From Candidatus Omnitrophota bacterium (GTDB taxonomy: Bacteria > Omnitrophota > Gorgyraeia > 2-01-FULL-45-10 > JBDRSA01): 17,560 bases of DNA. The notes under the pieces are model-generated. The model was given only the letters and a program-made list of their open reading frames with translations. It searched no databases and was not told the DNA's origin. A program made the translations under genes and the position numbers. Where the stretch lies: the NCBI GenBank assembly GCA_043825275.1, contig JBDRSA010000004.1, forward strand, positions 1-17,560, in the 5' to 3' direction. Below, piece after piece: positions 1,166 through 15,532 of the stretch; position 1 is the stretch's first letter; every line of letters begins with the position of its first letter.

Positions 1166-1195
1166 ATACTTAGCATATATAGTGTATGATGTCAA
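1166..1195 (-). promoter_or_regulatory. Putative sigma70-type promoter for the small membrane-protein gene
   Basis: The minus strand has a perfect -35 TTGACA (plus coords 1190-1195), an 18-nt spacer, then AAGTAT (1171-1166), which keeps only A-11, A-8 and T-7 of TATAAT. The SD follows about 10 nt later. The -10 is weak, so the call is tentative. Confidence 0.3.
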
Positions 1196-1213
1196 GCGCG
1201 CTTCGTGAAAATA

Positions 1214-1280: not shown

Positions 1281-1281
1281 G

Positions 1282-2712
1282 CTAGCTGGTCCAGACGGCG
1301 TAATCATACGCGGTATCGATGATCGGCTTAAAAGGGGCCCCGGGAGAGCCGACCGTCTCAAAGATAAGCGTAACTTCTTCTCCGGCATAACGCGAGAGAT
1401 CGACATCTCCCTGGAACCATCTTCTGTCGGACTTATTCTCTTTCGGATTGATATACCTCGAAAAGAGAATAACCGCGGGTGCGTCCGGGCCGACATCCTC
1501 AACAACCCTGAACTCAACACCGTCGCCCGGCTTATCCCACGCTTCTTCCAGGACGCCAAACCCAAAGACAATGTGAACGTTCTTGCTTTGTACGGGGAAC
1601 GTTACCCGGATCTTCGTCGGCGCCGGCGCGAAAACCGCGTATTTTTCCAGGCCTCCTATCCGCACATATTTTTTAAGGGAATCGACAGTATACCTTTTTT
1701 GTGCCGCCATCTCCCGCAGACGATCAATGGTGAACTTTTCTATAAAGAACGTGATCAGCGCATTTTTCTCCTGGATGGGATGAGACCGAAAATAATGAAA
1801 AGTACCGGCGGAAGACAGATAATATTCGGCAAACTCCTCTTTGACGAACAGTACGATCTTTTGAAGGAATAGATCCTGATTGATCTTGAAAATCATTAGT
1901 TTGCGCCGAAGCCGCTGCTTCAGATCCTCAGCCGTAGAGGCGTTCGCGAACATGATGATCAGATTATGCCACCCTTCTTCGACAGTTCCCCAGAAATGAT
2001 AGTCTTGTAGCTTATTGGGATCATATTTTCTGACCAGAGCTGACCCGAGCGTGTTGTCGTCTATCGCGAACTCCATCTTACAATTCGTATCGAGCATCGG
2101 GTCATCGGGTTTGGTTGAGTCATTCCGCGCGCATACGACAAACCGATGGAGGCCTTTATTTAAATGCACCGTCTTATGCATGGCCCCTTTGCTGGAAAGA
2201 CCTTTGAAGCCGTGCCGTTCTGCGCTTTTCACCGAAGAGCTTACCCCCATATCCGCTCCTTGAATAGCCAGGGTCGGGCCGCTTTGTATCAGAAAATAGC
2301 TGCCGAAGATCTCCCGACCTTCTGGAGCGCCAGATCTCACTACTTCTATCTCGCTATCTTCTACAGTCAGATACATCTCTTCGGTGAGCGGAACGCTCTT
2401 TGGCGAGAAAGACGCGATCGCATACCCCTCCAGATCCCATTTTTTGGCGGCGGGGTTCATCTTTATCAGGTCATCGCGCGTAATGCGTTCCCACTGCTCC
2501 ACTTTTTCCCGGGTCAACAAAGAACCTATCGCGTCAAAAAGCGTGGATTCAACCTTCACGTTCCTCACATTTTCCATCAGGGTGTAAGCATAAATATCTT
2601 CTTTCTTTTTTGCGGTAAGCAGAAAGAGAGTTACACCGAAAATAAGGATCATCAGGATCGACAACTTCAGTACGACACCGAATATCCTGTTGTATACTGA
2701 CGCGCTTGACAT
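1282..2712 (-). CDS. Membrane-anchored exported protein of unknown function (476 aa) with a beta-rich C-terminal domain
   Basis: Long ORF with an ATG start and AAGGAG 13 nt upstream. It has an N-terminal signal-anchor (IFGVVLKLSILMILIFGVTLFLLTA). The C-terminal segment ...GDGVEFRVVEDVG...RRWFQGDVDLSRYAGEEVTLIFETVGSPG...DYAVWTS resembles beta-sandwich tails I have seen on envelope-glycan proteins; this is recollection, not verified. The gene starts 17 nt after the Wzy_C-like gene, so the two look co-transcribed. Confidence 0.75.
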   Translation of the reverse strand: MSSASVYNRIFGVVLKLSILMILIFGVTLFLLTAKKKEDIYAYTLMENVRNVKVESTLFDAIGSLLTREKVEQWERITRDDLIKMNPAAKKWDLEGYAIASFSPKSVPLTEEMYLTVEDSEIEVVRSGAPEGREIFGSYFLIQSGPTLAIQGADMGVSSSVKSAERHGFKGLSSKGAMHKTVHLNKGLHRFVVCARNDSTKPDDPMLDTNCKMEFAIDDNTLGSALVRKYDPNKLQDYHFWGTVEEGWHNLIIMFANASTAEDLKQRLRRKLMIFKINQDLFLQKIVLFVKEEFAEYYLSSAGTFHYFRSHPIQEKNALITFFIEKFTIDRLREMAAQKRYTVDSLKKYVRIGGLEKYAVFAPAPTKIRVTFPVQSKNVHIVFGFGVLEEAWDKPGDGVEFRVVEDVGPDAPAVILFSRYINPKENKSDRRWFQGDVDLSRYAGEEVTLIFETVGSPGAPFKPIIDTAYDYAVWTS

Positions 2713-2729
2713 ATCTTTATCAAAACTCC

Positions 2730-3983
2730 TTACTTCCCTTCTTCCGCGCTCCTTTGTTCACAAGCAGTCGAGGCGACCCCTGCTCCGACCAGCACCCAGA
2801 AGAGTCCCGCGATCTCGCTCTGGCTCCAAAAATAGTCGACCAGTCCATGCCCCAGGAATCCTGCCAGTGAACAGAGGATCCCCAGCGTAATATATGTCTG
2901 TCCGAAACCATCTGACGCCCGTATGCCTTTATACAGCTTCCGCATAACAGCTCCGTACAACCACAAGAGCGCGAGCAGCCCGAAAAAACCGAGGTTGACC
3001 GTCGTTTCCAAAAAAATATTGTGCGTCCTGAAACGAGGAACGTTCTTCCAAAAGAACATATCCGCGCCCTGACCGCGAAAAGGGTACTCCTGAATAGATC
3101 GCAGAGCGCTCTTCGCATACTCGAGCCGGATCTTCTCCGTCGGCTCAAGGGTTCCTGTCGTGAACGAGCGAAAACCGAAAAGGTTAAATAAGAACGCTGA
3201 TACTATAATACCACAGAGCAAAAAGAAGAGGGCGATAATTTTCGGCTTTCTGTATTGTACCGCGAATATGGCCACGAAACAGGCAAAGGCGAAGAAGAGC
3301 CCTATGAGCCAGCCTTTCGTCCCCGAAAGAACCGCGCAAAAGATAAATAAAACAGTTAAAGATCCGTAGACGGCTCTCCGAAAAACGCTCGAATGAGGCC
3401 GGAAGATCCAAAAACACGCGGCGAGCGGAACAAGCGCGCCGAAAAATACGCTCATATTCGTCGGCCATCCAAACAGCCCGCAGATCCGGTGAGAACTGAC
3501 CTCGGCGCTTTCGAAGAATCGCCGGAGGCCATCTATCGCGTCATGACGAAAATACTGCGCGGCCACAAATACCGAGGCAATGCAGGCGCCGGCAAAAACA
3601 CAGGAGATCAGCCGCTCAAGCCGGCGTTCACTTGTTATAAAATTAATTATCGCGAAGGCGACGATGCCGAGGCCAAAGAACCGCGCCGTGTATTTCAACG
3701 ACCAGATCATCTTTTCTGACGGTATGACGCTTGAAAAAAGATGGATCCCTAAAAAAACGATGAAGGGATAAACGAGACCTCCCCCGTTCGGGACGTTCTC
3801 CCTGTTCGACAATATCGCGATCTCCCACAATATGATGAGAATGACGACCTCAAGCGCGAAAAAACTCTTTATCGCGGGAATCGTTAATCCGAGATTCTCC
3901 AGGGAAAAATCAAACGGAAGGAATAGAGCTATGCAGCAGCAGCAGTAAAAGACGGCGCGCCGAACGAACAAGGATAGTTTCAT
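2730..3983 (-). CDS. O-antigen ligase / O-antigen polymerase family (Wzy_C-like) polytopic membrane protein
   Basis: About 10-12 hydrophobic helices. The characteristic loop-plus-motif is RLEYAKSALRSIQEYPFRGQGADMFFW...RFRTHNIFLETTVNLGFFGLLALLWL, matching the R..W....P.G.G...F....HN..L....G..G pattern of PF04932. The track start at 3989 is TTG. I prefer the ATG two codons in (3983, MKLSLFV...). Confidence 0.8.
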   Translation of the reverse strand: MKLSLFVRRAVFYCCCCIALFLPFDFSLENLGLTIPAIKSFFALEVVILIILWEIAILSNRENVPNGGGLVYPFIVFLGIHLFSSVIPSEKMIWSLKYTARFFGLGIVAFAIINFITSERRLERLISCVFAGACIASVFVAAQYFRHDAIDGLRRFFESAEVSSHRICGLFGWPTNMSVFFGALVPLAACFWIFRPHSSVFRRAVYGSLTVLFIFCAVLSGTKGWLIGLFFAFACFVAIFAVQYRKPKIIALFFLLCGIIVSAFLFNLFGFRSFTTGTLEPTEKIRLEYAKSALRSIQEYPFRGQGADMFFWKNVPRFRTHNIFLETTVNLGFFGLLALLWLYGAVMRKLYKGIRASDGFGQTYITLGILCSLAGFLGHGLVDYFWSQSEIAGLFWVLVGAGVASTACEQRSAEEGK

Positions 3984-4124
3984 GGGCAATTATCGGGAAG
4001 AGCCGGCGCGGGAATACCGCCGATCGTTCTTCGAACCGCGGGACAATGGCCCCGTCCGCGAACATAGGGAACGGCCGGATGTCCGCCGGGAAGAAATCCG
4101 CGGTCTCGTTCTATGGCGAAGGCG

Positions 4125-5111
4125 TCACTTAACTTCTGACTGTACGCCATCAGAACTCACAAAGCAGATCCTGTTCCTTCCCGTCTCCTTCGCGTAGTAC
4201 AGGCACTCATCGGCTTTCGCGACCAACGACCTCGGGTCTTTCGAGTCATCCGGATAGGACGAGAGGCCGATGCTGATGGTAAGATGGGCGGTCGTGAGAG
4301 CTTTCTTATCGATGAATTTTGAATTCGCCACGAGCATCCGCAGGCGCTTCGCCACAATAATGGCCTTTGCCTTATCCGTCTCCGGCAGCAGCGTCACAAA
4401 CTCCTCACCGCCGTACCTGAAAACGTGGTCGGTGAACCGGACGCTTCCTGAAAGGATCTGCGCGACCTTTTTCAGGGCCCAATCACCCGCCTGGTGCCCC
4501 TGAGAATCATTAAAATTCTTGAAATGGTCGACATCGATCATCATGCACGAAAGAGGCTTCATGTATTTTGCCGCCCGCATCAGCTCATCGGGAAGCATCG
4601 CGTCAAAATGCCTCCGATTGTAGATCTCGGTCAACCCGTCAAGGATCGACAGCCGCTGATACTGCTCCTTCTCTTTCGCCTCCTTCAAGAGGAGCTGGCG
4701 CTCAACCGCCCTGCGCACGACGACCTTGATCTCCTCAATGTTGAACGGCTTTGAGATATAGTCGTACGCGCCCTCTTTCAGGACCTCCATAGCGGATTGT
4801 ATTGACGCGTAGCCGGTTATGACAATGACGCAGACATCCGCCTTCGCGCTTCTGAATTTTTTTGTGACCTCTACGCCGTCAATACCCGGCATTCTCATGT
4901 CCGTTATCACAATGCTGAAATCGCTGTTGTTGACGAGCCTCACCGCCTCTTCGCCGCTTGACGCCGTACACACCTGGTAGCCGGATTCGGTCAAGACATC
5001 CTTCAGCATGCTGCGCATAATGTCTTCATCGTCTACCACCAGAATGCTAACCGCGGCCATCGCGTTCGCGACGGCGTCTCTCGATCTCTTAACGTTCTCC
5101 CGCTCAGCCAT
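4125..5111 (-). CDS. Response regulator with GGDEF output (REC-GGDEF diguanylate cyclase, PleD/WspR-like)
   Basis: REC domain: ILVVDDEDIMRSML...FSIVITDMRMPGIDG...VIVITGYAS, giving the acidic pocket, phospho-acceptor Asp and conserved Lys region. GGDEF domain: LDGLTEIYNRRHFD...IDVDHFKNFNDSQGHQAGDWALK...RFTDHVFRYGGEEFVTLL...ADECLYYAKETGRNR. The active site GGEEF is intact and an RxxD I-site (RFTD) lies 5 residues upstream. SD AGAGGAG precedes the ATG. The gene starts 23 nt after the kinase gene. Confidence 0.95.
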   Translation of the reverse strand: MAERENVKRSRDAVANAMAAVSILVVDDEDIMRSMLKDVLTESGYQVCTASSGEEAVRLVNNSDFSIVITDMRMPGIDGVEVTKKFRSAKADVCVIVITGYASIQSAMEVLKEGAYDYISKPFNIEEIKVVVRRAVERQLLLKEAKEKEQYQRLSILDGLTEIYNRRHFDAMLPDELMRAAKYMKPLSCMMIDVDHFKNFNDSQGHQAGDWALKKVAQILSGSVRFTDHVFRYGGEEFVTLLPETDKAKAIIVAKRLRMLVANSKFIDKKALTTAHLTISIGLSSYPDDSKDPRSLVAKADECLYYAKETGRNRICFVSSDGVQSEVK

Positions 5112-5134
5112 GATTTTTTGCCGCTCCTCTTTTT

Positions 5135-6898
5135 TTATTTTTTAGGCTCTTTGGATTTCACTATCGGGAAGCTCAGTATAAAAGTGGTTCCTTTCCCCTC
5201 TTCACTCTCCGCGGCAACCGTCCCTCGGTGGGCCTGAACGATCGTATGGGTTATTGAAAGCCCGAGGCCTGTTCCGGATCTTCCTACCTTGCTCGTAAAA
5301 AAAGGATCGAAGATATTTGCCAGGTTCTCCTTCGAGATCCCGCTGCCGGAATCCGAAACACGGACCTCCACATACTCAAGCGGAGGCCTGTATCTCGTAT
5401 CGCTCTTGTTCAGAGCGGTCACCTTGATCACGCCGTTCTCGCCCATAGCGTCCTGAGCGTTCTGAATAAGATTCGTGAACACCTGCTGCAGCTGATTCGC
5501 GTTCCCGTTGATCTTCCTGAGGCCTTCCGGAGAGAACGCGGCCGATACTTTCATGTTCTTCTGTGAGAGCTGGAACTCCATCATGCTGACGGTATTCTCA
5601 ATAACGTCCTGGATATTTATCTCTTCCATCTCTTCGGACGATTTCCGCGAAAAATTCAGCAGGTTCGATATGATCCACTGACAGCGCTTCGATTCCTTCT
5701 CAACCATCTCAAGGTATCTGATCGACGTATCAATGACATCCTGTGAGGGGGTAGAGGATTTAAGCCTGGATAATATCAGCTGCACGTACCCGAGGATCCC
5801 GCCGATAGGATTGTTCAGCTCGTGGGCGACGCCGGCGCTGAGCTGGCCGAGCGAGGCCATTTTCGAGGATTGGACGACCTGGTTATACGTCTGCCGCAGT
5901 TCATCCATCTGATCCTTGGCCTTCCCACGGTCGACCTGTTTATATTCGATCAACCGGTCCTCTTTCACCCTAAGCTCATCGGTTACCCGGAGGTGCGCGG
6001 CCTTCAAGGCGATCAGGCCGGTTATACTCTGAATGAGGCGGATCGCCCCTTTCAACAGCATCTCATCTCTTTTCGCGGCCGCCCCGATGACGCCGAAGAA
6101 TGCCCCCCGGTACTCAATGGGCACCAGAATAACCCCCCGGGACCCCTGCTGAAAAAATATCTTTTCTACTTCTTCAAATTTCTTCCCCCCCAAAAGACTC
6201 TTCTTAAAAACGGCTTCCTTCAATCGTATCTCGCGTATCGACGTCCCCTCTTCGTCAAGAGGGATATCTCTTCTTTCGGCCAGGCCTTCGGGGAAGAGCG
6301 GGTAAATGGTCGCCTTCTTCTTATCGCCGCTTATCAGTAGAAGAGCCGCGGAGTCTATATATTGGATCGATCGAAGGCCGTTCCTGGCTGCCTCGAGCAG
6401 ATCGCTCGTCGTTACCCCTGACGAGAGGATCTCCTGGAATTTTTGAAGGAATGAATTGCTTTGGCTGAAACTGCCGAGCGAAGATATCATCTGAGAACAG
6501 GCATGATCGATGTAGGCGATCTCGCCTTTCTCTTCTTCTATATGGCCTTCGCCGCAATACCCTTTTACTTTCTTTACCAGAACGGTCATCGGAGACAGGA
6601 TCCTGTCAAACAACGGAAAAGTAATGAGACAGACCGCCCCCAGGCTTAAAACCGCTACGAGCGCGGAAGAAAATATTACGGTGGTAAACTCCTTGCTCGC
6701 GAAAATACTGACAAGCAGCCCCGCCTCAATAAACAGAACGACCAGAACCACTCCAATAACAAAGATTTTTATGATTTTATCTTTCAAGAACGGCCATCTT
6801 TCTTTTTTCTTGAGGCTTTTAATGAAATATAGCACCACTCTTTGTGCTTTGTCAAGTTTAAATTCCTCTGTCGAAATTCCTCTGTCGGTTATTGACAC
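5135..6898 (-). CDS. Membrane-bound sensor histidine kinase (2 TM, GAF-like domain, HisKA, HATPase_c)
   Basis: Two adjacent TM helices (IIKIFVIGVVLVVLFIEAGLLVSIF / VIFSSALVAVLSLGAVCLITFPLF) with almost no periplasmic loop. GAF-like core: ...IDSAALLLISGD...GVILVPIEYRGAFFGVIGAAAKR. H-box: SLGQLSAGVAHELNNPIGGILGYVQL. N-box: QVFTNLIQNAQDAM. G-boxes: VSDSGSGI and GTGLGLSI. The annotated start is GTG at 6898. The true start is uncertain because of the 14-bp tandem repeat at 6860-6887 (see findings). Confidence 0.9.
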   Translation of the reverse strand: MSITDRGISTEEFKLDKAQRVVLYFIKSLKKKERWPFLKDKIIKIFVIGVVLVVLFIEAGLLVSIFASKEFTTVIFSSALVAVLSLGAVCLITFPLFDRILSPMTVLVKKVKGYCGEGHIEEEKGEIAYIDHACSQMISSLGSFSQSNSFLQKFQEILSSGVTTSDLLEAARNGLRSIQYIDSAALLLISGDKKKATIYPLFPEGLAERRDIPLDEEGTSIREIRLKEAVFKKSLLGGKKFEEVEKIFFQQGSRGVILVPIEYRGAFFGVIGAAAKRDEMLLKGAIRLIQSITGLIALKAAHLRVTDELRVKEDRLIEYKQVDRGKAKDQMDELRQTYNQVVQSSKMASLGQLSAGVAHELNNPIGGILGYVQLILSRLKSSTPSQDVIDTSIRYLEMVEKESKRCQWIISNLLNFSRKSSEEMEEINIQDVIENTVSMMEFQLSQKNMKVSAAFSPEGLRKINGNANQLQQVFTNLIQNAQDAMGENGVIKVTALNKSDTRYRPPLEYVEVRVSDSGSGISKENLANIFDPFFTSKVGRSGTGLGLSITHTIVQAHRGTVAAESEEGKGTTFILSFPIVKSKEPKK

Positions 6899-6968
6899 TA
6901 AGGCGATTTAGTGCTATATTTAAATGTAAATTAGGCATTAATATTGTCGATGGAAAGATTTGGCTCTT
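6899..6968. promoter_or_regulatory. AT-rich divergent intergenic region between the kinase operon and the LysM/motor operon; presumed to hold promoters for both
   Basis: It is the only AT-rich gap between two divergent operons: ctaaggcgatttagtgctatatttaaatgtaaattaggcattaatattgtcgatggaaagatttggctctt. It contains several TATA-like hexamers (TATATT, TAATAT) and a TAAA-N15-GTCGAT motif. No confident sigma70 -35/-10 pair with 17-nt spacing could be assigned. Confidence 0.4.
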
Positions 6969-7673
6969 ATGCATACTTCACATAGTACCATCCGGCGGAG
7001 CGGGAAGATATTATTGACAACTCTCTTCGCTCTTCTCGCGCTCTTTTTTTCCGCTTCCGAATCCTCCGCCCGGGATCCGATGCGGTCAGGTTCCCGAGAG
7101 GCCGAGGCCTACGACGATGGCATCTTCCGGGAAAACAGAGGCTACCTTGTCAGTAACGAGAATATCCCCGAGGAGCGCTCAAAATCAACCCTCTTCAGAC
7201 GCGGAGCGTTCAATAGGACTGAGACGTCTCGTCAGCGAAAGAAGAGAGCTCCGATAACAAAAATATCGTACGGGCAAAAAAAATCCCGGGAGATCTCTAA
7301 ACCGTCTCAACAGGAGTCTTCGTACATTCGTACTCTTGAAGACGCTCTCCTGCAGGAACGAGAGCGCTCGCTGCGCCAAACGAAAGAGATCGAGACGCTC
7401 AGGAGTAAACTGGAACGGGCTCTCAGGCAGCTGTCGCTGGCGACCCAGAAGATAATGGACCTCAAACAGGAGCGCCCCGCGTCTTCAAAGAGAATTTCAC
7501 AGACCTACCAGGTCAAAGCGGGCGATTCTCTCTGGTCGATCGCCGCGATGAAAGAGATCTACGGCAATCCGAAGAAGTGGCTTCTTCTCTATCACGCCAA
7601 CAGGGATCAGATCTATGATCCGAACCTTATCTTCCCGAACATGGTACTCTTGATCCCGCGTCTCAACGATTAA
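6969..7673 (+). CDS. Exported coiled-coil protein with a C-terminal LysM peptidoglycan-binding domain
   Basis: Signal peptide: KILLTTLFALLALFFSASESSA. Heptad-like charged segment: RTLEDALLQERERSLRQTKEIETLRSKLERALRQLSLATQKIMDLKQE. C-terminal LysM: YQVKAGDSLWSIAAMKEIYGNPKKWLLLYHANRDQIYDPNLIFPNMVLLIPR. The track start at 6960 is TTG. I prefer ATG 6969, which has GGAAAG 11 nt upstream. The stop lies 10 nt before the next gene. Confidence 0.85.
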   Translation: MHTSHSTIRRSGKILLTTLFALLALFFSASESSARDPMRSGSREAEAYDDGIFRENRGYLVSNENIPEERSKSTLFRRGAFNRTETSRQRKKRAPITKISYGQKKSREISKPSQQESSYIRTLEDALLQERERSLRQTKEIETLRSKLERALRQLSLATQKIMDLKQERPASSKRISQTYQVKAGDSLWSIAAMKEIYGNPKKWLLLYHANRDQIYDPNLIFPNMVLLIPRLND

Positions 7674-7683
7674 GGAAATATCT

Positions 7684-9726
7684 GTGGGGACCGACAACTA
7701 CACTACGGTTGGACGCTTGAAAACAACGCGCAAACTGTTTTACAGTACTCTGCCGCTGAAGGCGGCCTTCTCTGTATTGGTATGTTCGCTGGCGATCCTG
7801 CCGCCTGCCGCGGCTGCTCAGAGACGGGCCGACGAAGCGATATTGGAAAGTGACATGGCGACCCGCCTCGAATCGATGGTAGAAAAAGTCGTCGGAAAGG
7901 AGCGCTCGATCGTAAAGGTAAAGGTCACCCTTTCGCGCCCCCAGGCTGAAGCTCCTCTCGGCAGCTTAAGAGGGAAGCTGGGCGACATGCCCGGTGTCGC
8001 GTTCTCGAAGGCGGAGCCCAAAAAAGAAGAGACGGTAAAACTCTCGGTCGGCCCCACGATCGAAAAGATCGCGATCACGATCTTTCTCGACAACAAGATC
8101 GCCTCCGATAAGATCGACAGCATAAAAGAATCCATTCCCCGGTGGATGGATCTCGATTTCGAACGCGGCGATACGCTGAAGATCGAGCTGAAGCCGTGGA
8201 AAGAGCTTCCGCCGGAAGATATCGCGATAAAACAGCTGTCGTTCCTGAAAGGAAATCTTTTGGCGATCGTCGCCATCGCCAGTATCGTCATCCTGGTCTT
8301 CGTCCTTATGGCCGTACTTGCCGTACCGGCCAGGAAAATGATCAAACAGCGGTTGAAGATGCCGTCCGACGAGAAAAAGCTCAAGGATCTCGCCAAGGTG
8401 ATGGGTGACCTGAAAAACGTTATCATTAAATCGACCGCCGGCGCGGCGAAGAACGTCGATACCCTTCTTGAGGATATCAAAGGGATCCTCGCGAGAGCCC
8501 CCTCGAGAAGCGACGGCCTGCTTGAAGAAATACGGGATGTGCTTGAAAATATCGCCACAAAATCGATGAAGGGGGGCGAGGGAGGCTCCGGCGGGGCCGG
8601 CGGCTCGGCCGGATCCGCCGCCGGTTTACAGGCGCCCGAGTTCCTCCAGGCACTCAGGGATACGCTCGCGCCGATGGGCGGCGACGGAGGGTTATCCCCC
8701 GAGGCGCTCCAGGTGCTCCAGAGCATCGAGGAGCACATCAAAAGACAGGTTGACGGCGTTGCCGCGGGCGACATTCTTGACGAGCCGTTCAAATATCTCA
8801 ACTCTATCTCGACCGGTGAGATCTCCCTGTATATCGACGGCGAGGAGCCGAGGATCGCCGCCATAATACTGGGACATATCGACCCGAACAAAGCGGCGGA
8901 AGTCGTAGCTGAGCTATCCGACGAAAGAAAGATAGAGGTTTCGGTCGCCATGGCAACCCTTGTCGAGACCGATAAAGTCGCCGCCGAAATAAAGGACTTT
9001 ATCCGCCGCAAAATGCCCGAAGTCAAGCTGAGAAGCGACTTTCAGCCTATTACGGGAAGCAAGGCGCTCGCGGAGCTTTTGAGCTCTTCAACGCTTGATA
9101 TTACGAATTATGTCCTCGACAATCTCCAGAAGAGTAACCCCTCGATCGCGGAAGCGGTAAAGAAGGAGATGTTCCTCTTTGAGGATATCGCGGGCCTGCA
9201 GAATGAAGGCGTCGCGGAGCTGTTAAAAAGCACCGACCGGCATCGTCTTAGTCTTGCCCTTCTGAAGGCGTCGGACGCGGTTAAGACCAAATTTTTTAAC
9301 AACATGACCGAGCGCGCCGTCGCGATGGTCAAGGAGGAGATGAGCGCCCTGCAGCCCGTATCCGATGAGGGTTTGAAAGACGAAATTCTGTTTTTTGAGG
9401 ATATCGTAAATCTCGGCCAGAAGAGATTTCAGCAGATCTTTTCGAATATCGACCGAAATATGATAAAGCTCGCGCTCAAAGGGTCGTCCGAAGAAGTCCG
9501 TACTAGGGTCTTCGCGGTCATGACCGAGCGCGGAGCGGCAATGCTGCGGGAAGATATCGAGGTTATGCCGAACATCGCGCGGGAACGCACGCTCGAGGCG
9601 CAAAAAGAGATACTGGATTACGTGCGTAAACTGGAGATGGAACCTATTGTCGCTCAACAGGAGATCATCGCCAAGGTCAGAGAGCTCGAACGCGCCGGAA
9701 GGCTCTCGCTCGGATCGCGGTCCTGA
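7684..9726 (+). CDS. 680-aa fusion protein: signal/TM, FliF/YscJ-like periplasmic module, TM, long flexible linker, FliG-like middle domain, and two tandem FliG C-terminal units
   Basis: GTG start with AAGGAAA 5 nt upstream. aa 25-45 hydrophobic (LKAAFSVLVCSLAILPPAAAA). aa 46-190 are periplasmic with ring-building-motif-like strings (ATRLESMVEKVVGKERSIVKVKVTL ... IEKIAITIFLDNKIASDKIDSIKESIPRWMDLDFERGDTLKIEL). TM at aa 191-214. Gly-rich tether: GGEGGSGGAGGSAGSAAG. FliG ARM_M-like: GEEPRIAAIILGHIDPNKAAEVVAELSDERKIEVSVAMATL. FliG_C unit 1: MFLFEDIAGL...LSLALLKASDAVKTKFFNNMTERAVAMVKEEM. Unit 2: ILFFEDIVNL...IKLALKGSSEEVRTRVFAVMTERGAAMLREDIEVMPNIARERTLEAQKEILDYVRKLE. Confidence 0.8.
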   Translation: MGTDNYTTVGRLKTTRKLFYSTLPLKAAFSVLVCSLAILPPAAAAQRRADEAILESDMATRLESMVEKVVGKERSIVKVKVTLSRPQAEAPLGSLRGKLGDMPGVAFSKAEPKKEETVKLSVGPTIEKIAITIFLDNKIASDKIDSIKESIPRWMDLDFERGDTLKIELKPWKELPPEDIAIKQLSFLKGNLLAIVAIASIVILVFVLMAVLAVPARKMIKQRLKMPSDEKKLKDLAKVMGDLKNVIIKSTAGAAKNVDTLLEDIKGILARAPSRSDGLLEEIRDVLENIATKSMKGGEGGSGGAGGSAGSAAGLQAPEFLQALRDTLAPMGGDGGLSPEALQVLQSIEEHIKRQVDGVAAGDILDEPFKYLNSISTGEISLYIDGEEPRIAAIILGHIDPNKAAEVVAELSDERKIEVSVAMATLVETDKVAAEIKDFIRRKMPEVKLRSDFQPITGSKALAELLSSSTLDITNYVLDNLQKSNPSIAEAVKKEMFLFEDIAGLQNEGVAELLKSTDRHRLSLALLKASDAVKTKFFNNMTERAVAMVKEEMSALQPVSDEGLKDEILFFEDIVNLGQKRFQQIFSNIDRNMIKLALKGSSEEVRTRVFAVMTERGAAMLREDIEVMPNIARERTLEAQKEILDYVRKLEMEPIVAQQEIIAKVRELERAGRLSLGSRS

Positions 9727-9785
9727 CCGCTCTCGATTCATTGATCTCAGTCATCAAAAGAAACCGGTGGAAGAAAGGATCAAGC

Positions 9786-9980
9786 ATGATCATCGTTACA
9801 AAGTTTGACGGCAAGGAACTGGTAGTGAACGCCGACCTTGTAAAGTTCGTCGAAGCGAAACCTGACACTATCATGACGCTCACCACCGGTGAAAGGATCA
9901 TCGTAAAAGAACCCCGCGATGAAGTTATCAGCCGGATCATTAAGTATAAGCAGTTGGTACATCAACCCCCCGTCCAATAG
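9786..9980 (+). CDS. flbD: FlbD (small flagellar stator-associated protein, PF06289-type)
   Basis: MIIVTKFDGKELVVNADLVKFVEAKPDTIMTLTTGERIIVKEPRDEVISRIIKYKQLV matches the FlbD consensus pattern (..lTrlnGkef.lNadlIe.ie..PDT.itLt.G.k..VkEs.eEV...i..yk). The track ORF begins at 9741, but ATG 9786 has the SD GGAAGAAAGGA and gives the canonical 64-aa size. Confidence 0.85.
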   Translation: MIIVTKFDGKELVVNADLVKFVEAKPDTIMTLTTGERIIVKEPRDEVISRIIKYKQLVHQPPVQ

Positions 9981-9995
9981 AACAGAGAGGCGACC

Positions 9996-10751
9996 ATGGC
10001 GATAACAACTATAACCGGGCTTCTCCTGGCGGCGTTCTTTCTTCTTTTCGGTATCGCGACACGCGGCGGTATGTCCCGGATCATGGTCTTCGTCGATCCG
10101 GGATCTCTTATGCTGGTTGTCGGCGCCAGTATTTCGGCGCTCATCACGAACTATACGTTTAAAGAGATATGGCTGGCCATGAAAGCTATCCGTTTCGCCT
10201 TTCTGCCGAAACCCCCGATGCCTGAAGCGGTTATCGATCTGATCGTGCGCATGGCCATCAAAGCGCGCAAAGAAGGGTTCATTTCACTGCGGGAAGAGTC
10301 ATCCGGCGAAAAATTTCACCTGGTCGACCTGGGTGTCGGCCTCATCGCCGACGGGACCGATCCCGAGGTGACCCGGGAGATCCTCGACGCCGCGAGCTTC
10401 ACCGAGGGCGGCATGCTCGCTTCAAACGAGCGTGTCTGGAGGGACCTGTCGGTTTATACTCCCATGTTCGGTATGGTCGGAACGCTGATCGGCCTTATCC
10501 TGATGCTGCGGGGTTTGTCCGACCCCGCGACCATCGGCCCGGCAATGGCCATGGCGCTCATAACAACGCTCTACGGCATCGTTATCGCGGGTGTGCTTTG
10601 TCTTCCGATCGCCGGAAAGATCAAAAATTATAACGATCGGGTAGCGGTCCTGAGAACGCTTATGATCGAGGGCCTCATCTCCATCCAGGCGGGTGACAAC
10701 TCCCAGATCGTTGAGGCGCGCCTCAAGGCTCATATCGCCAAAGAATCCTAA
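9996..10751 (+). CDS. motA: MotA/PomA-type flagellar stator channel subunit (251 aa, 4 TM)
   Basis: The four-TM layout has a large cytoplasmic loop between TM2 and TM3. That loop contains AIKARKEGFISLREE, the ARxxGxxxLE-type charged loop of MotA/PomA. TM3 is YTPMFGMVGTLIGLILML and TM4 is GPAMAMALITTLYGIVIAGVLCLPIAGKI, so both conserved prolines are present. The gene sits 15 nt after flbD and 7 nt before motB. Confidence 0.9.
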   Translation: MAITTITGLLLAAFFLLFGIATRGGMSRIMVFVDPGSLMLVVGASISALITNYTFKEIWLAMKAIRFAFLPKPPMPEAVIDLIVRMAIKARKEGFISLREESSGEKFHLVDLGVGLIADGTDPEVTREILDAASFTEGGMLASNERVWRDLSVYTPMFGMVGTLIGLILMLRGLSDPATIGPAMAMALITTLYGIVIAGVLCLPIAGKIKNYNDRVAVLRTLMIEGLISIQAGDNSQIVEARLKAHIAKES

Positions 10752-10758
10752 TAAAAGA

Positions 10759-11553
10759 ATGCCCGTTCACAGCCTCTATAAAAAAAAGAAAGCTTTCCCT
10801 TCGGTCTCCGGAGAAAGCGAGCTTGAAGACAGCTGGCCGCCTACCTGGTCCGTCAGCTTTGCCGACCTGACGACGCTGCTAATGTCGGGGTTCATCCTCT
10901 GGTACGCTCTTACCGCGATGAAGATCCCGCCGGAACTTCTCGCGATCAAAGAGATCGATCAGGTTATTCCCGCCGATATCAAGATCATGGAAAACTTCGA
11001 ACAGGCGGGCGCCGATCAATCAAGGATCATGCTCAAGATCAAGGCCCTCACCCCCAAACAGCGCAGGCTTGTCAGAGAGATGAAGGCCCTGAGGGAGCTC
11101 AAAGAGACGATCGAGCGCCAGATAACCCAGGCCGGCCTTGACGACAAAGTAGACGTTCGGGTAGAGATCGACGCGGTGCTCATAACGCCGCGTGAGCCTT
11201 TTCTCTTCGGGGAGGGGGACGCCCGGCTCAAACAGAGCTCGTTCGCGCTGCTTGACACAATTATCGAAACGATACGGTCACGGTCATACTACCGGATACG
11301 CGTCGAGGGCCATACCGACAGCGCGCCGATCGGCCCTTTCCGCAAGATCCTGTTCCCCACGAATTGGGAGCTTTCCTACAAACGGGCGATAACGGTAGCT
11401 CAATATCTTATTGCCGGAAATATATCGCCCGCGGCCATCGGGGTGACCGGATACAGCGATACAAAACCGAAGGTTGTGGGCGATGACCCGGAAAGCAGAG
11501 AGAAGAACAGAAGGGTCGACATTTATATTTATCTCAAGAAGGTCGAAAGGTAG
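10759..11553 (+). CDS. motB: MotB-type stator subunit, paralogue 1 (TM with conserved Asp, coiled-coil linker, OmpA-like peptidoglycan-binding domain)
   Basis: The start is trimmed to ATG 10759, because track start 10693 would overlap motA by 59 nt. N-terminus: SWPPTWSVSFADLTTLLMSGFILWYALTAM, with the channel Asp in FADL. C-terminus: YRIRVEGHTDSAPIG...FPTNWELSYKRAITVAQYL...GVTGYSDTKPKV...NRRVDIYI (OmpA_C-like). Confidence 0.9.
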   Translation: MPVHSLYKKKKAFPSVSGESELEDSWPPTWSVSFADLTTLLMSGFILWYALTAMKIPPELLAIKEIDQVIPADIKIMENFEQAGADQSRIMLKIKALTPKQRRLVREMKALRELKETIERQITQAGLDDKVDVRVEIDAVLITPREPFLFGEGDARLKQSSFALLDTIIETIRSRSYYRIRVEGHTDSAPIGPFRKILFPTNWELSYKRAITVAQYLIAGNISPAAIGVTGYSDTKPKVVGDDPESREKNRRVDIYIYLKKVER

Positions 11554-11565
11554 CGTCCTCAAGCC

Positions 11566-12318
11566 ATGATCGAATCAAGAATTCAACGGCGCGATCAAGC
11601 GACATCAACGCTTCAGGAGGTTTGGCCGCCGAAGTGGTTCTTTTCGTATTCGGACCTGTCGGTGCTCCTGATGACCTTCTTTATCATTCTCGCCACGATG
11701 CTTTCCCTGAAGATCCCGCTCTACGTGTTTGCCGACGCGAGATTAAAACCGCTCCTGGATGAACGGATGGTCGTCTTTGAAGAGATCAGGCGGCTCACGG
11801 AACTCGAGAAGATGATGATGGATGAATTTCAATCAATGCGGCCCGATCAGGTCAAGCGCCTCATCGCGCTCGAGAAGATGAATGAGTTGAAAAAAAGTAT
11901 CGATAAGTACATCAAGAAGATGCAGCTGGAAAATTTTATCAAGATCGAAGCCGGAAAGTGGAAGCTCCGGCTGGTGCCCTTGTCTCCCTTGCTGTTCGGC
12001 CGCGGCGACGCCGTTCTGCGTCAGGAAGCGAAAGATTTTCTCGATCAGATAGCGGAATTCGCCGCAATGTACCCGTCGCGCCTTTCGATCGAGGGGCACA
12101 CGGACGACACCCCTATCAACACCCGTCAATTCTCCTCAAACTGGGAACTTTCCGCGGCCCGCGCGAACAGCATTATGCGCTATCTGGCCACCGAACACAA
12201 GATCCCCTCTGATAAGATCGACGCGGTCGGATACGGGGAATACCGGCCGCTCGTCCCCAACGACTCGGATACAAACCGCGCCTCCAACCGCCGGGTCGTT
12301 ATCGAACTGCTTATTTGA
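11566..12318 (+). CDS. motB: MotB-type stator subunit, paralogue 2
   Basis: N-terminus: VWPPKWFFSYSDLSVLLMTFFIILATM, with the Asp retained. C-terminus: RLSIEGHTDDTPINTRQFSSNWELSAARANSIMRYL...AVGYGEYRPLVPN...NRRVVIELL. It has the same architecture as paralogue 1, including an alignable coiled-coil linker, and starts 12 nt after it. Confidence 0.9.
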   Translation: MIESRIQRRDQATSTLQEVWPPKWFFSYSDLSVLLMTFFIILATMLSLKIPLYVFADARLKPLLDERMVVFEEIRRLTELEKMMMDEFQSMRPDQVKRLIALEKMNELKKSIDKYIKKMQLENFIKIEAGKWKLRLVPLSPLLFGRGDAVLRQEAKDFLDQIAEFAAMYPSRLSIEGHTDDTPINTRQFSSNWELSAARANSIMRYLATEHKIPSDKIDAVGYGEYRPLVPNDSDTNRASNRRVVIELLI

Positions 12319-12387
12319 ACAGTCGTAGAGCTTTTACATGCCACGACTGTTCATCCTGAGCGAAGCGAACGATCTCATTCCATAACT

Positions 12388-12410
12388 TCCTCTCCCCGGA
12401 GGGGAGAGGA
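12388..12410. repeat. GC-rich perfect hairpin (10-bp stem, 3-nt loop) in the convergent intergenic region; possibly a bidirectional terminator or a REP-like element
   Basis: tcctctcccc-gga-ggggagagga. It is flanked by tcatcctgagcgaagcgaacgatctc upstream and ttgaggtgagggg downstream. There is no U-tract on either strand, so it is not a canonical intrinsic terminator. Confidence 0.4.
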
Positions 12411-12467
12411 TTGAGGTGAGGGGTACCCTTGAATGCTTGTACATTGCTACCGGCTTCGGTATCCCGG

Positions 12468-12761
12468 TCAAAACTTCATCTGGGATCTCACCCTCGTAGG
12501 ACTGCCGTCTTCTGACGAGTGATACTTTATCTGAGGATTCATCCAATACCTAAGATAGCGGGTAATAGTCTTTCCTCCGACAATATACCCGCAAAGAGCC
12601 GCCATTATCACAATAAAAACCTTGAGCAGTATCGTGGCTCTAAATCGGCTCTTCCTTGCTATCTTCTCTTTTATCTTTATTTTAATACGGTTTTGCGAAC
12701 GGCCAAACGTATTCCCGCCCGGAGCTTTTTCCGTATTCTCATCATGTCTGAAATTATCCAT
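12468..12761 (-). CDS. Possible small single-pass membrane protein (97 aa), hypothetical
   Basis: Track ORF 12468..12872 trimmed to the internal ATG at 12761. The product is MDNFRHDENTEK...RIKIKIKEKIARKSRFRATILLKVFIVIMAALCGYIVGGKTITRYL..., i.e. a basic N-terminus followed by one TM. It is co-directional with, and 76 nt downstream of, the three-gene cluster. There is no recognisable family and the region is AT-richer than the neighbouring genes, so it may be non-coding. Confidence 0.3.
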   Translation of the reverse strand: MDNFRHDENTEKAPGGNTFGRSQNRIKIKIKEKIARKSRFRATILLKVFIVIMAALCGYIVGGKTITRYLRYWMNPQIKYHSSEDGSPTRVRSQMKF

Positions 12762-12837
12762 GTACTTTTCCGTTATCTTTTGCCATGAACGATCTTTGTT
12801 CCCGTCAATTATCCGGCTTCCGCTGTATCTCCGGCCT

Positions 12838-14316
12838 CTACTCAACGGTAAAAGTACCGACCACCCAGTCACCGTATTTTTCGTAGTTTACATACGGCTG
12901 TTTGAACGTATCGCTTGGATAAGTCGGCTGGTCGATTTGATAAACCCCGTCCTTTCCTCTGTAGTATCTTACATAGCTTGCTCCCTCCTGAGTCTTTTGT
13001 TCAATAAAAAGACCTGCTTCAATATCATAAATGCCGGGGGGCGTATCATCAGGTATGTACACTCGCTTCGGCCCCTGGGTAATAATCTCACCAACCTTCC
13101 ATTCCGTCGCTTGAGGAATCAGTGAAGAATCGGCATTAATATAGCCGGCCTTATCGTTCTGTCGATAAATATGCATGAATAACGCGTAATTTTTCTTAAA
13201 CTTTCTTGATATTGAAAAAGATAACTCTATATCGATCGTTCCACCGGGTCGTACACTGTTTTGAGAAAGTTTTGTCCCTTCGAAAGTAACAAAAGGGCCC
13301 GTCTCATTGCCCAGATTGAAAGAGACAAGCCAAACATCATCGAGATATATTGTCGCCTGAGCGCCGCCGCGATAAAAATTAAAATCGTCTATATCGCCAA
13401 GGTCGATCTTCTCGCCGACAGCCGATAAATTAATAACATACGGCTTATCTTTCTCCGTTGTACCGGGTATTCCAACCGTAAATCTTCGTCCCGTTCTGTC
13501 TTTGATCTGCAAGGTAAGGGGAGTATTTGAATACGTGTGGCCATCCTTCTCCGGTCCATAGACGTAAAAACGCAATTCATCATAGAGTAACCAATCGTGG
13601 TATTTCGGATTACTATATCTAAAAAAATTGTTGAGTCGAACCGTAGGCATGCCGCCTTCGTTGAATGTTATTTTGGCCGCCTGCTTCCCTTGAGCAACAT
13701 TCTCTTTTTCCTGCTCAATAACGGCGCCGGATAGCTCCCATTTCCTTACATCGACCAGATCTTCAAAATCACTTATTACAAGATCTTCGATCTTCTTTTC
13801 CTCATTCTCATCTGCCGGCTCGACCACACGCAACGTCCCGACAATAAAATCTTTTATATCCGCGTTGGTATACGGCTCCCTGATATAGATCGGTCCCGCA
13901 GATGTCTGTTTCGTCGAATAGAGCCCCATCCTTACACCATACTCTCCCGCCGGTATGTCAGAAGGAATAAAAACATTGACCGGACCTACGGAAACCGCGT
14001 CACCAACTACCCACATCGTTGTAGGCGTCGCGGGCGAAAAATCATTATTGATAACGATCGCGTGCGTCTTGAGATCTACAATATGCAGATAAAACCCGTA
14101 ATCTTCCCAAATATTCTTGGTGATCGAAAAATCAGCGTTCAAGAAGAAGATCTCCCCTTTTTGGACCTTATCGGGAATATCGAGCGTCCCTAAAGTTATG
14201 ATCGCCTTTCCTTCCCGGACAATAGATTTCGCTTGAACGGTAAAAGAAAAGATGGTGCCAATTAAAAGAATAGGTATAGATACCCGCCGAATATGATAAA
14301 ACAGCATCTTTTTCAT
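12838..14316 (-). CDS. Secreted modular protein (492 aa): module A, CBM-like module B, module A
   Basis: ATG start with AGGAGA 9 nt upstream. Signal peptide: MKKMLFYHIRRVSIPILLIGTIFSFTVQA. N-terminal module A: ...FYLHIVD...INNDFSPATPTTMWVVGDAVSVGPVNVFIPSDIPAGEYGVRMGLY...VGTLRVVE. Central module B: ISDFEDLVDVRKWELSGAVIEQ...DWLLYDELRFYVY...LQIKDRTGRRF...IYLDDVWLV. C-terminal module A: ...LFMHIYR...INADSSLIPQATEWKVGEIITQGPKRVYIPDDTPPGIYDIEAGLF...VGTFTVE. Confidence 0.85.
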   Translation of the reverse strand: MKKMLFYHIRRVSIPILLIGTIFSFTVQAKSIVREGKAIITLGTLDIPDKVQKGEIFFLNADFSITKNIWEDYGFYLHIVDLKTHAIVINNDFSPATPTTMWVVGDAVSVGPVNVFIPSDIPAGEYGVRMGLYSTKQTSAGPIYIREPYTNADIKDFIVGTLRVVEPADENEEKKIEDLVISDFEDLVDVRKWELSGAVIEQEKENVAQGKQAAKITFNEGGMPTVRLNNFFRYSNPKYHDWLLYDELRFYVYGPEKDGHTYSNTPLTLQIKDRTGRRFTVGIPGTTEKDKPYVINLSAVGEKIDLGDIDDFNFYRGGAQATIYLDDVWLVSFNLGNETGPFVTFEGTKLSQNSVRPGGTIDIELSFSISRKFKKNYALFMHIYRQNDKAGYINADSSLIPQATEWKVGEIITQGPKRVYIPDDTPPGIYDIEAGLFIEQKTQEGASYVRYYRGKDGVYQIDQPTYPSDTFKQPYVNYEKYGDWVVGTFTVE

Positions 14317-14407
14317 TGTTATCTTTCTCCTTTTTTAAAATACTAAAAATACATATATCAGACAGAGGGTCTATCTTTTTGTCAGCCAGTTTTCGACGCA
14401 AATGGCT

Positions 14408-15499
14408 TTACTTCACTACTTCAATATATCCGACTATATGATCTTTAAAAGCTTGGCTTGCGTACCGCAAGCGGGGATAGCCGGTACGAAAATCAAAGGC
14501 TCCACTGTTGAGCGCGCCTCTTGAATACGATCCTCTTGATCGGGGATTAAATAGCCCGATCTGCACCGCATAGGCGCCCGGTTGAAAATCTTTCGGAATA
14601 AAGATCCTTTCCGGGCCAATTTCATATATGCCGCTTTCGGCCCACTGAGAAGTAGGGACTAATGGATCTCTGTCCGCGTTGATAAACCATCGCCGTTTTG
14701 ATGACTTTTTTTTCAATTCATTTGATTTTGAAATATGAATAAACGCTTTATACTTTTTGTCCAGCGCTTTTAAGGCCACCATACTGCAGGAAAGTAAAAT
14801 TTCCGTGCCGCGTCGAACAGTATCCGGAGCGCGCAACGAAACAAAGTCTACCATAGGATCTTCCAGGATATCTCTCTTTGCAAGATCTTCCCTATCAAGC
14901 CTTACATTGTCCAAATAAAACTCGCGATCTTCGTTTTGGGGACCGGTAAAGAGTTTAAGATAGACGATATTCGTTAGATCAACTGTATCAGCAATATCTT
15001 TGAGATCGATCCGAATATTATTTTTCCCACTTTGCATCTTTATTTTCTGCTGCGCATATCGGCCGGCTTTATCCTTTATTTTTATGTCAAGGAGTACAGG
15101 GGCATCCTGCGGGTTCCATAGCTCAAACCGTAAAGATTTAAAACGAGACCAATCTTTTTCCCCGCGAGGACCTATATTAGTGTCTTCAAGCCCTACTCCT
15201 GGAGTAGCGCTCCCTCCATGTTCTTTACTGTATAGAGTTACATGGGCGGAGTGTTTTCCAGATGACGCGTACCGGGAAGAAAGCTCAACAAAGCTTCCGT
15301 CAAGATCCCACGCCCAAAAATCCTTCGACCCCTCAAAATCACTAAGAACTTTTTCGTGAGGCGTATAAAAATAATTGACTGCCGGTTTTGTATAATTAAT
15401 AAACGTGTTAATAACTCCCGTTCTTTTTATGGAAAACCCGATCAATAAGAGCCATCCGAGGATAACACTAAATATAACTAAAAAATAATTTTTTTTCAA
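14408..15499 (-). CDS. Membrane-anchored/exported modular protein (363 aa): CBM-like module B, then module A
   Basis: TTG start; there is no in-frame ATG before the N-terminal TM (YFLVIFSVILGWLLLIGFSI). Module B: LSDFEGSKDFWAWDLDGSFVELSSRYASSGKHSAHVTL...DWSRFKSLRFELWNP...IKIKDKAGRY...FYLDNVRL. Module A: ...AFIHISK...INADRDPLVPTSQWAESGIYEIGPERIFIPKDFQPGAYAVQIGLF...VGYIEVVK. Confidence 0.85.
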   Translation of the reverse strand: MKKNYFLVIFSVILGWLLLIGFSIKRTGVINTFINYTKPAVNYFYTPHEKVLSDFEGSKDFWAWDLDGSFVELSSRYASSGKHSAHVTLYSKEHGGSATPGVGLEDTNIGPRGEKDWSRFKSLRFELWNPQDAPVLLDIKIKDKAGRYAQQKIKMQSGKNNIRIDLKDIADTVDLTNIVYLKLFTGPQNEDREFYLDNVRLDREDLAKRDILEDPMVDFVSLRAPDTVRRGTEILLSCSMVALKALDKKYKAFIHISKSNELKKKSSKRRWFINADRDPLVPTSQWAESGIYEIGPERIFIPKDFQPGAYAVQIGLFNPRSRGSYSRGALNSGAFDFRTGYPRLRYASQAFKDHIVGYIEVVK

Positions 15500-15532
15500 A
15501 ATATAGCCTGCCGTTCGAATGCCGAGAAATAT

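Follow-up and report, generated by a model that had tools for sequence, protein, structure and literature searches.

The window analyzed here, a stretch of 17,560 nucleotides (nt) from a Candidatus Omnitrophota metagenome-assembled genome (MAG; assembly GCA_043825275.1, contig JBDRSA010000004.1, positions 1 to 17,560), carries on its forward strand a cassette of six genes with intergenic gaps of 7-44 nt. The second of these genes (7684..9726, +) encodes a 680-aa protein in which a periplasmic domain related to the third ring-building motif (RBM3) of FliF is followed by a transmembrane (TM) helix, a linker, the middle domain of FliG (M) and two consecutive units of the FliG C-terminal domain (C and C'). 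Its 680-codon open reading frame (ORF) begins at a GTG codon with an AAGGA sequence 7-11 nt upstream; the NCBI annotation places the start of the same gene at a TTG codon (7717) and describes the resulting 669-aa product as a 'FliG C-terminal domain-containing protein'. A first-pass annotation of the window had proposed that the ORF is a natural fusion of a FliF-like and a FliG-like module, which the profile, fold and comparative analyses reported below bear out. Overlooked at that stage was the gene context of the fusion, which shares an operon with stator genes and lies in polysaccharide and exosortase loci, with no flagellar gene cluster.

The source of this gene, a 17.6-kb metagenome-assembled contig, and the low complexity of its linker might suggest that misassembly or a frameshift has merged two genes into one ORF or, alternatively, that the ORF is a functionless relic in decay. 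The fusion layout, however, is continuous and has the same part order in 13 close homologs (31-70% identity) identified in NCBI, JGI, ENA and Logan assemblies, and the RBM3-TM-FliG plan is common to at least 83 protein clusters (defined at 50% identity), which stem from independent samples and assemblers. Furthermore, tblastn searches in 12 species-representative genomes covered the fusion query from approximately aa 17 to aa 677. Because the layout is kept down to 31% identity on independent contigs and the tblastn alignments span most of the protein, a frameshift join of the kind that the first-pass annotation had asked to be checked is ruled out, and the ORF is genuine. At that same 31% overall identity, the residues that remain invariant in 12 homologs at functional sites are the RGD that closes RBM3, the MFLF motif and R616/E623/D624 in the FliG part, and the probability of an artefact or a relic is hence negligible. 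An antisense ORF of 402 codons (7818-9026, −) was also considered as a gene, but it falls wholly within the conserved forward frame of the fusion and is most likely its shadow.

The periplasmic part of the fusion (aa 46-170; 7819..8193, +) is, on the evidence of profiles and structural models, homologous to the RBM3 of FliF, which corresponds to Pfam family PF08345 (YscJ_FliF_C). The domain consists of an α1-β1 half, a 42-aa loop in which an L..PG motif is conserved and a β2-α2-β3 half that ends in the invariant RGD. In the full-length AlphaFold2 (AF2) model these elements appear as a helix (aa 43-70), a strand (aa 75-83), the 42-aa loop, a second strand (aa 126-135), a helix (aa 141-154) and a third strand (aa 164-169), and the domain-only model gives the same secondary-structure order (mean predicted local distance difference test scores, pLDDT, of 63 and 59, the latter for the domain-only model). 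Residues 1-190 taken alone match PF08345 below its threshold (15.3 bits against a cut-off of 23.8, E 0.029), the match placing aa 115-168 on positions 87-143 of the 147 in the profile. A periplasmic family profile built from 11 homologs, in turn, retrieved from the PDB a single sequence at E≤10, the FliF chain 9yh6 (E 0.37), aligned through the β-α-β half that closes in RGD-x-L. Among 1.84 billion representative proteins the same profile matched 485 at E≤1e-3, including genuine FliF proteins at E-values from 4e-12 to 1e-6 and with per-domain scores of up to 36 bits. When 161 of the matched proteins were sorted, 84 proved to contain FliG M or C domains, 51 were bona fide FliFs and 26 were short fragments; each of four matched FliFs examined in Pfam contains both PF01514 and PF08345, with scores of 100-223 bits (185-223 for PF01514). 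These FliFs align to the profile in two stretches located on either side of the β-collar, with profile positions ~5-50 (α1-β1) corresponding to FliF residues ~220-300 and positions ~65-135 (β2-α2-β3) to residues ~330-430.

The model of the domain points in the same direction. Its 17 best Foldseek matches in the PDB are all FliF RBM3/S-ring chains (E 8e-5 to 5e-3, probability 1.00, TM-score ~0.5), followed by OsmC-like folds and then, weakly, by PrgK and MxiJ. This outcome of the modelling check that had been suggested for the periplasmic fold backs the sequence homology, without amounting to independent proof given a model pLDDT of 59. Additional support comes from the wider family, in which PF08345 is detected at E≤1e-3 in 36 of 83 fusion proteins and some relatives match the whole profile with scores above the Pfam cut-off (P0064, 36.1 bits; P0084, 33.4 bits; P0159, 27.0 bits). 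Two of these, P0064 and P0159, from the distant loci L020 and L018, harbor a fuller, collar-sized insertion in RBM3.

RBM3 builds the 33/34-mer S-ring of FliF, in which the type III export gate is enclosed by RBM2 and the rod is held by the β-collar. Of these parts, RBM2 is missing from the fusion and the collar is reduced. No match to PF01514 (YscJ_FliF, comprising RBM1 and RBM2) was found in the window protein at E≤0.1, or in any of the 83 fusion proteins at E≤1e-3, and the β-collar is cut to 42 residues of low pLDDT between β1 and β2 (aa 84-125), where the matched FliFs have ~60 or more aa between their two aligned stretches; the L..PG motif conserved in this loop may be a remnant of the collar. 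The possibility that the periplasm holds two separate ring-building motifs, which had been read into two α-β-β strings, can be discarded, since the two strings are the α-β and β-α-β halves of a single motif, split by the 42-aa loop at the point where FliF has its collar. Similarly, SctJ/PrgK was rejected as the closest ring because the fold matches to PrgK and MxiJ (E 0.015-0.24) rank under chance OsmC-like folds. The homology to FliF/SctJ ring-building motifs, formerly considered the weakest link of the proposal, thus stands for FliF RBM3, on both profile and fold evidence, and is weak for SctJ; it fails for PF01514, the family initially suggested for the comparison, the homologous part of FliF being PF08345.

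The cytoplasmic part of the fusion opens its FliG-like portion with a segment (aa 368-494; 8785..9165, +) that encompasses the middle domain (ARM_M), helix MC and ARM_C. FliG_M (PF14841) is detected in aa 380-447 with 50.1 bits against a cut-off of 25, and the cytoplasmic part aligns with the FliG-MC structure of Thermotoga maritima (1lkv, E 4e-26), including the EHPQ region and the MFxF hinge. In this alignment the EEPRIAAIILGHIDP segment of the fusion pairs with the EHPQ segment of T. maritima FliG, as the first-pass annotation had anticipated for ARM_M, and MFLF (aa 496-499), invariant in 12 homologs, pairs with MFVF. EHPQ itself is replaced by EEPR (family consensus DEEPR), and no FliM gene is present in the locus.

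Downstream of ARM_M, the FliG C-terminal domain is duplicated, a feature that had gone unnoticed and that was revealed by PF01706. The first unit (aa 479-560; 9118..9363, +) scores 81 bits over profile positions 1-82, bears the MFLF motif and the torque helix NMTERAVAMVKEEM, and lacks the last helix; its invariant residues in 12 homologs are M496, F497, L498, F499, K536, N540, M541 and E551, and the position equivalent to R281 is mostly basic. The second unit (aa 563-653; 9370..9642, +) scores 84.3 bits over profile positions 13-103, matches the FliG structure 1qc7 at 1e-12 and contains the torque helix MTERGAAMLREDIE, with K595, R616, E623 and D624 invariant in 12 homologs. Each unit lies above the PF01706 cut-off, the two are 33% identical (E 2e-13), and the Pfam search of the whole fusion reports two FliG_C stretches totaling 146.8 bits. 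On the basis of the 1lkv and 1qc7 alignments and of general knowledge on FliG, we take the invariant charges of the two units to be the equivalents of E. coli K264, R281, D288 and D289; by this comparison, both units keep the charge pattern of the torque helix. Among the proteins compared, the tandem is confined to the close clade, while distant fusions (450-580 aa) possess one FliG_C. With the NCBIfam model for FliG (TIGR00207) the fusion scores 170.7 bits, below the equivalog cut-off (226.7), and matches positions 111-301 only. The FliG module was also observed in a fusion of another, cytoplasmic type: P0014, a 537-aa ENA protein, combines a ROK-family domain (PF00480) with FliG_M and FliG_C.

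The regions that flank and connect these domains follow the topology that had been proposed for the ORF, that is, an N-terminal hydrophobic stretch, some 145 periplasmic residues and a TM segment. The N-terminal segment (aa 1-45; 7684..7818, +), a signal peptide or first TM helix, has a basic n-region, a 13-aa core within a hydrophobic stretch at about aa 21-39 and the sequence PPAAAA|Q, and is poorly conserved among homologs; it resembles a cleavable Sec signal, and the mature protein would probably be single-pass. The second hydrophobic segment (aa 193-214; 8260..8325, +) is identified by a Kyte-Doolittle scan and by an AF2 helix at aa 192-220 as the equivalent of the second TM helix of FliF. 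It leads into a cytoplasmic, helical, Gly/Ala-rich linker (aa 215-367; 8326..8784, +) with AF2 pLDDT below 50 over most of its length. Neither FliG_N nor FliF was matched by the linker of the window protein alone (aa 215-372), by 11 members of the family or by their profile, and searches with the profile against the PDB and with the members against Pfam returned designed helical bundles, Pup and low-complexity noise only. With none of the 11 linkers matching FliG_N, a FliG_N domain or FliF tail hidden in the linker can be ruled out. The sole FliG_N (PF14842) signal in the fusion is a sub-threshold cross-match of 22.1 bits inside FliG_M/ARM_M (aa 390-431), in agreement with the prior claim that the domain is not recognizable. 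In a distant fusion, P0151 (604 aa), FliG_M is immediately preceded by a genuine FliG_N domain (aa 276-368, 36.6 bits). Because P0151 retains this domain, FliG_N was probably present when the fusion arose and lost later in the clade of the window protein, a scenario that fits the earlier idea that covalent fusion makes the docking domain dispensable.

The five genes that accompany the fusion complete what appears to be a rotor-stator operon. A predicted sigma-70-like promoter (6892..6920, +; TTGACA-17-TATATT with a TG element, 11 of 12 consensus matches) precedes gene 1 (6969..7673, +), whose product, secreted or anchored, combines an ENRGY motif and a coiled coil with a peptidoglycan-binding LysM domain at the C terminus (28.4 bits). 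Gene 3 (9786..9980, +) encodes, from an ATG at 9786, a 64-aa member of the FlbD/SwrD family (PF06289, 83.2 bits). The product of gene 4 (9996..10751, +) is a MotA/PomA stator subunit of the flagellar type: it matches PomA (8brd) at E 2e-39 and TolQ only at E 0.037, and scores 183.5 bits against the NCBIfam PomA cut-off of 341. Its R91, which corresponds to R88 of PomA and R90 of MotA, is conserved in 12 of 12 orthologs. The position of PomA E96 (E98 of E. coli MotA) is occupied by Arg (R99) in the Omnitrophota/Auribacterota clade and by Glu in the MotAs of distant cassettes; a change in the FliG part that might compensate for R99 was looked for, and none was found. Genes 5 (10,759..11,553, +) and 6 (11,566..12,318, +) encode two MotB paralogs, each with a plug, a channel Asp (in SFADLTT and SYSDLSV, respectively) and an OmpA-like peptidoglycan-binding domain, a combination that hints at a MotB1/MotB2 heterodimer. 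Just after the stop codon of gene 6, two perfect inverted repeats (12,316..12,410, +) are found, the first (12,316-12,353) with 11-nt arms and a 16-nt gap and the second (12,388-12,410) with 10-nt GC-rich arms and a 3-nt gap. Neither is followed by a T-run or was flagged by the terminator scan; they possibly mark the end of the operon. Taken together, the cassette proteins match the MotA_ExbB, MotB_plug/OmpA and FliG families, and not GldL or GldM.

This set of six genes recurs, with its order unchanged, in ~13 other distinct loci of the PVC group (L001-L015, where L008 repeats L003 and L015 repeats L002), with only part of the cassette visible in those that end at a contig edge. Their carriers comprise Omnitrophota, 'PVC group' MAGs, Candidatus Erginobacter occultus (Auribacterota) and an 'uncultured Planctomycetia' MAG. 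The gene that precedes the fusion in L002 is an ortholog of gene 1 (E 1e-24), which holds the same position in all the PVC-group loci in which the upstream flank is covered (L001-L003, L005-L008 and L010-L015), the flbD gene is kept in all PVC-group loci and also in the distant locus L018, and tandem MotB paralogs follow motA in every PVC-group locus with a covered downstream flank. On one side, the PVC cassettes are bordered by genes for a coiled-coil protein and a priming transferase (Bac_transf), then exosortase EpsH/EpsI; a polysaccharide deacetylase and a metallophosphoesterase follow, along with two secreted proteins, and the opposite flank is occupied by glycosyltransferase genes.

Beside the cassette, the window and L001, its closest relative, have an insertion with genes for a Wzy-like protein and for a histidine kinase and a PleD-like receiver-GGDEF protein. 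The PleD-like diguanylate cyclase and the histidine kinase (4125-5111 and 5135-6898, −) diverge from the operon, an arrangement that might favor a mainly sensory or regulatory role for the ring and its stator, which would report on the ion-motive force or on the load of the envelope and thereby govern how much polysaccharide is produced, for instance via cyclic di-GMP (c-di-GMP). FliG is a known target of effectors linked to polysaccharide operons and c-di-GMP, such as EpsE and YcgR, and a gene for a PilZ protein lies near the distant fusion of L017. The kinase/cyclase pair, however, is found in the window and L001 and not in the other PVC or distant loci, and the strict conservation of the torque-helix charges and of the Asp and plug of MotB is what a working motor needs. 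Sensing, moreover, does not preclude rotation, and we consider a primarily sensory function unlikely.

A secreted paralogous family is also found beside the cassette in all PVC loci with a covered flank. It was identified through the mutually related '494-aa' and '344-aa' genes of L002 (6242-8840), and tblastn locates it in the window at 12,838-14,316, 14,408-15,499 and 17,162-17,554 (−), within a downstream third where G+C content is 0.42-0.46 as compared with ~0.53. The L002 494-aa and 344-aa proteins, the window stretches 12,838-14,316 and 14,408-15,499 and ~800-aa proteins of the distant loci L017, L018 and L020 gave no informative NCBIfam or PDB match. At the contig end, a gene on the reverse strand (15,533-17,542, −) codes for a protein resembling GH123-family glycoside hydrolases (catalytic domain, 85.7 bits); the third tblastn stretch (17,162-17,554), obtained with the L002 494-aa protein, coincides with the 5' end of this gene on the same strand and in a different frame.

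The gene content of the cassette might equally be taken to indicate the rotor of a true, streamlined flagellum with FliF and FliG fused and with the export, rod, hook and filament genes encoded elsewhere in the genome. Every recognizable part is indeed flagellar (FliF RBM3, FliG, FlbD, a PomA-like MotA and MotB), and the order fliF-fliG ... flbD-motA-motB parallels the one in flagellar operons of spirochaetes and Firmicutes. In Salmonella and Vibrio, engineered fusions of FliF to FliG are reported to work or to assemble (PMC10941966, PMC11481574), and one species of Omnitrophota is flagellated. Against this interpretation, RBM1 and RBM2 are missing from all 83 fusions and the collar is down to 42 aa. 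In addition, no other flagellar Pfam family was detected within ±10 kb in the nine loci with Pfam tables of called genes, and in 11 further loci mapped by tblastn in the genome-collection scan only cassette and polysaccharide genes were matched, with no export, rod, hook or filament genes. The neighbors of the cassette are instead polysaccharide and exosortase genes or giant surface proteins, two phylum-wide surveys of Omnitrophota nowhere mention flagella and, in Ace Lake, 14 Omnitrophota MAGs were reported to have no motility genes (PMC8542988). We therefore regard a rotor serving a conventional flagellum as quite improbable.

Outside the PVC group, fusions with ~20% identity to the window protein extend the association with stator genes. 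Of the 83 fusion proteins, 81 have FliG_C and 73 FliG_M, and the fusion was also traced to an Elusimicrobiota MAG and to Candidatus Electryonea clarkiae (FCB group). Word-indexed protein searches had a shorter reach, a profile of 26 diverse N-terminal regions retrieving two proteins and P0033 four. Genes for MotA and MotB lie directly downstream of the fusion in L016, L017, L019 and L021; in L018, motA, with two motB genes after it, is separated from the fusion by an ~800-aa gene and flbD, and in L020 no stator gene is found within 10 kb. The two L018 MotBs (15,680-17,051) differ in that the first has no channel Asp (WYWSYTGMALL) and the second retains it. A homologous outer-membrane-barrel/tetratricopeptide repeat (TPR) partner, similar to UPF0164, PorV and PorP, is encoded in L016-L018, L020 and L021, and distant fusions also adjoin 1,550-aa FG-GAP/CHU_C proteins. 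CHU_C/Por_Secre_tail proteins and PorV and PorP/SprF neighbors are found beside distant relatives only. ORFs of 16,931 aa (L017 1-8090) and 14,454 aa (L018 1-7823) end ~2 kb upstream of the respective fusions, from which a single outer-membrane-barrel/TPR gene separates them. Two members of the wider fusion family were seen to end in TPR repeats.

These results lead us to propose, with a probability of roughly 0.6, that the fusion is a single-polypeptide, covalently coupled rotor ring driven by MotAB outside the flagellum. In the putative machine, RBM3 domains would oligomerize into a periplasmic ring, so that just as many FliG units would be arrayed in a circle beneath the membrane, with the covalent link standing in for the dock between the FliF tail and FliG_N. 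MotA5B2 stators, perhaps with B1/B2 heterodimers, would be anchored to peptidoglycan, possibly aided by the LysM protein, and ion flow would drive MotA against the FliG_C torque helix through a contact between R91 and the acidic pair, causing the ring to spin. With neither RBM1/2 nor the collar, without FliG_N or FliM/FliN and with no export or axial genes nearby, such a rotor is unlikely to secrete proteins or to carry a rod. Its conserved neighbors suggest that the output is directed to a process of the cell envelope or surface rather than to a filament: in the PVC clade these are EpsH/EpsI, the priming glycosyltransferase, the polysaccharide deacetylase and the Wzy-like protein, and in other phyla the outer-membrane barrel-TPR proteins, CHU_C/Por_Secre_tail proteins and proteins of 14,000-17,000 aa.

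Several considerations weigh against a covalent rotor ring of this kind. That a ring forms, in what stoichiometry, and that stators dock onto it and make it rotate are proposals derived from homology, and confidence in the AF2 models is modest (mean pLDDT 63 and 59). The scan for flagellar genes addressed the surroundings of the cassette, so canonical flagellar genes may exist elsewhere in the carriers, and at least one Omnitrophota species is flagellated (PMC8542988). The load is suggested by gene neighborhood, and a ring that turns nothing is no machine. The presence of R99 at the PomA-E96 position in the PVC clade implies a non-textbook charge pairing between rotor and stator, EHPQ has given way to EEPR, and FliM and FliN are missing from the locus. 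The LysM protein would bind static peptidoglycan, and a role as stator scaffold is as likely for it as one in the output. Finally, the polysaccharide synteny may be explained in part by shared descent within one superphylum.

With these reservations, we give even chances to a broader interpretation, taken as a whole, in which an RBM3/FliG ring and MotAB constitute a widespread, flagellum-independent rotary motor that powers a cell-envelope process. Such a motor would be spread over Omnitrophota, Auribacterota, Elusimicrobiota, Electryoneota and other uncultured phyla, and its work would be linked to polysaccharide/exosortase output in the PVC group and, elsewhere, to the movement or deployment of giant surface proteins through the barrel-TPR partners. 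Its branching position would decide whether it is a flagellar rotor-stator module re-used after the export apparatus was lost or a surviving relative of a rotor that predates the acquisition of the type III secretion core by the flagellum.

Comparison with the known systems delimits what is new in this arrangement. The fusion shares with FliF an N-terminal hydrophobic segment, a periplasmic ring-building motif, a TM helix and a cytoplasmic tail, and its RBM3 is homologous down to the RGD-x-L strand; it differs in its lack of RBM1/RBM2, in a collar of 42 aa, in an N-terminal segment that is probably cleaved and in the replacement of the FliG-docking tail by a covalent link. With FliG it has in common ARM_M, helix MC, ARM_C, the MFxF motif and a C-terminal domain with the torque charges (R..ED), and it departs from it in the lack of FliG_N, the EEPR motif, the tandem C-domain, its membrane anchoring and the absence of FliM/FliN from the locus. 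Clearly homologous to parts of both proteins, it belongs to neither proper, with no PF01514 or collar as a FliF, and with no FliG_N and a sub-cut-off TIGR00207 score as a FliG.

The closest precedent for the fusion itself is provided by the engineered and spontaneous FliF-FliG fusions of Salmonella and Vibrio, which share its 1:1 covalent coupling of ring and FliG; the Vibrio construct is reported to form rings, and its S-ring structure was solved (PMC10941966, PMC11481574; PDB 8z4d/8z4g). This Vibrio structure is among the sequence and fold matches of the window fusion. The engineered proteins, however, join full-length FliF to (nearly) full-length FliG, are laboratory-made and operate in a complete flagellum, whereas the window fusion is natural, half their size and located outside any flagellar gene cluster.

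With regard to the stator, the cassette MotA resembles PomA most closely and has the arginine equivalent to R88/R90, and its MotBs retain the plug, the Asp and the OmpA-like domain of flagellar-type MotAB/PomAB; the second MotB paralog, the Arg at the PomA-E96 position and scores below the NCBIfam equivalog cut-offs set it apart. In the available classification of such units (PMC12505986), it groups with PomAB/MotPS and not with ExbBD/TolQR. In function, the closest analogy would be with non-flagellar 5:2 motors, such as GldLM of type IX secretion and gliding, ExbBD-TonB, TolQR-TolA and AglRQS, which likewise associate an ion-driven inner-membrane motor with surface or envelope genes (PMC9389320). 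Those motors, however, transmit force through the periplasmic arm of the B subunit or through TonB, TolA or GldM and have no FliG ring, whereas in the cassette a flagellar-type stator faces a FliG rotor.

In the full-text literature, with subscription-only papers mostly outside the search, no account came to light either of a FliF-FliG fusion occurring in nature or of a FliG and MotAB module outside flagella. All the parts are of known kinds and it is their combination and setting that appear to be new, although priority is not certain. FliG and MotAB are normally treated only as flagellar parts, and a specialist in the flagellar motor would not expect such a cassette. If the proposed function is correct, the fusion would show which parts of the MS-ring and C-ring suffice to make a ring that accepts torque, and it would provide a small, tractable object for structural work on rotor and stator, with a 1:1 stoichiometry set by the covalent link. 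The cassette would then define a new class of non-flagellar, ion-driven envelope machines in phyla without cultured members. It would also bear on the long-standing question of whether the rotary and secretion modules of the flagellum had separate histories, which phylogenies of RBM3, FliG_MC and MotA could test.

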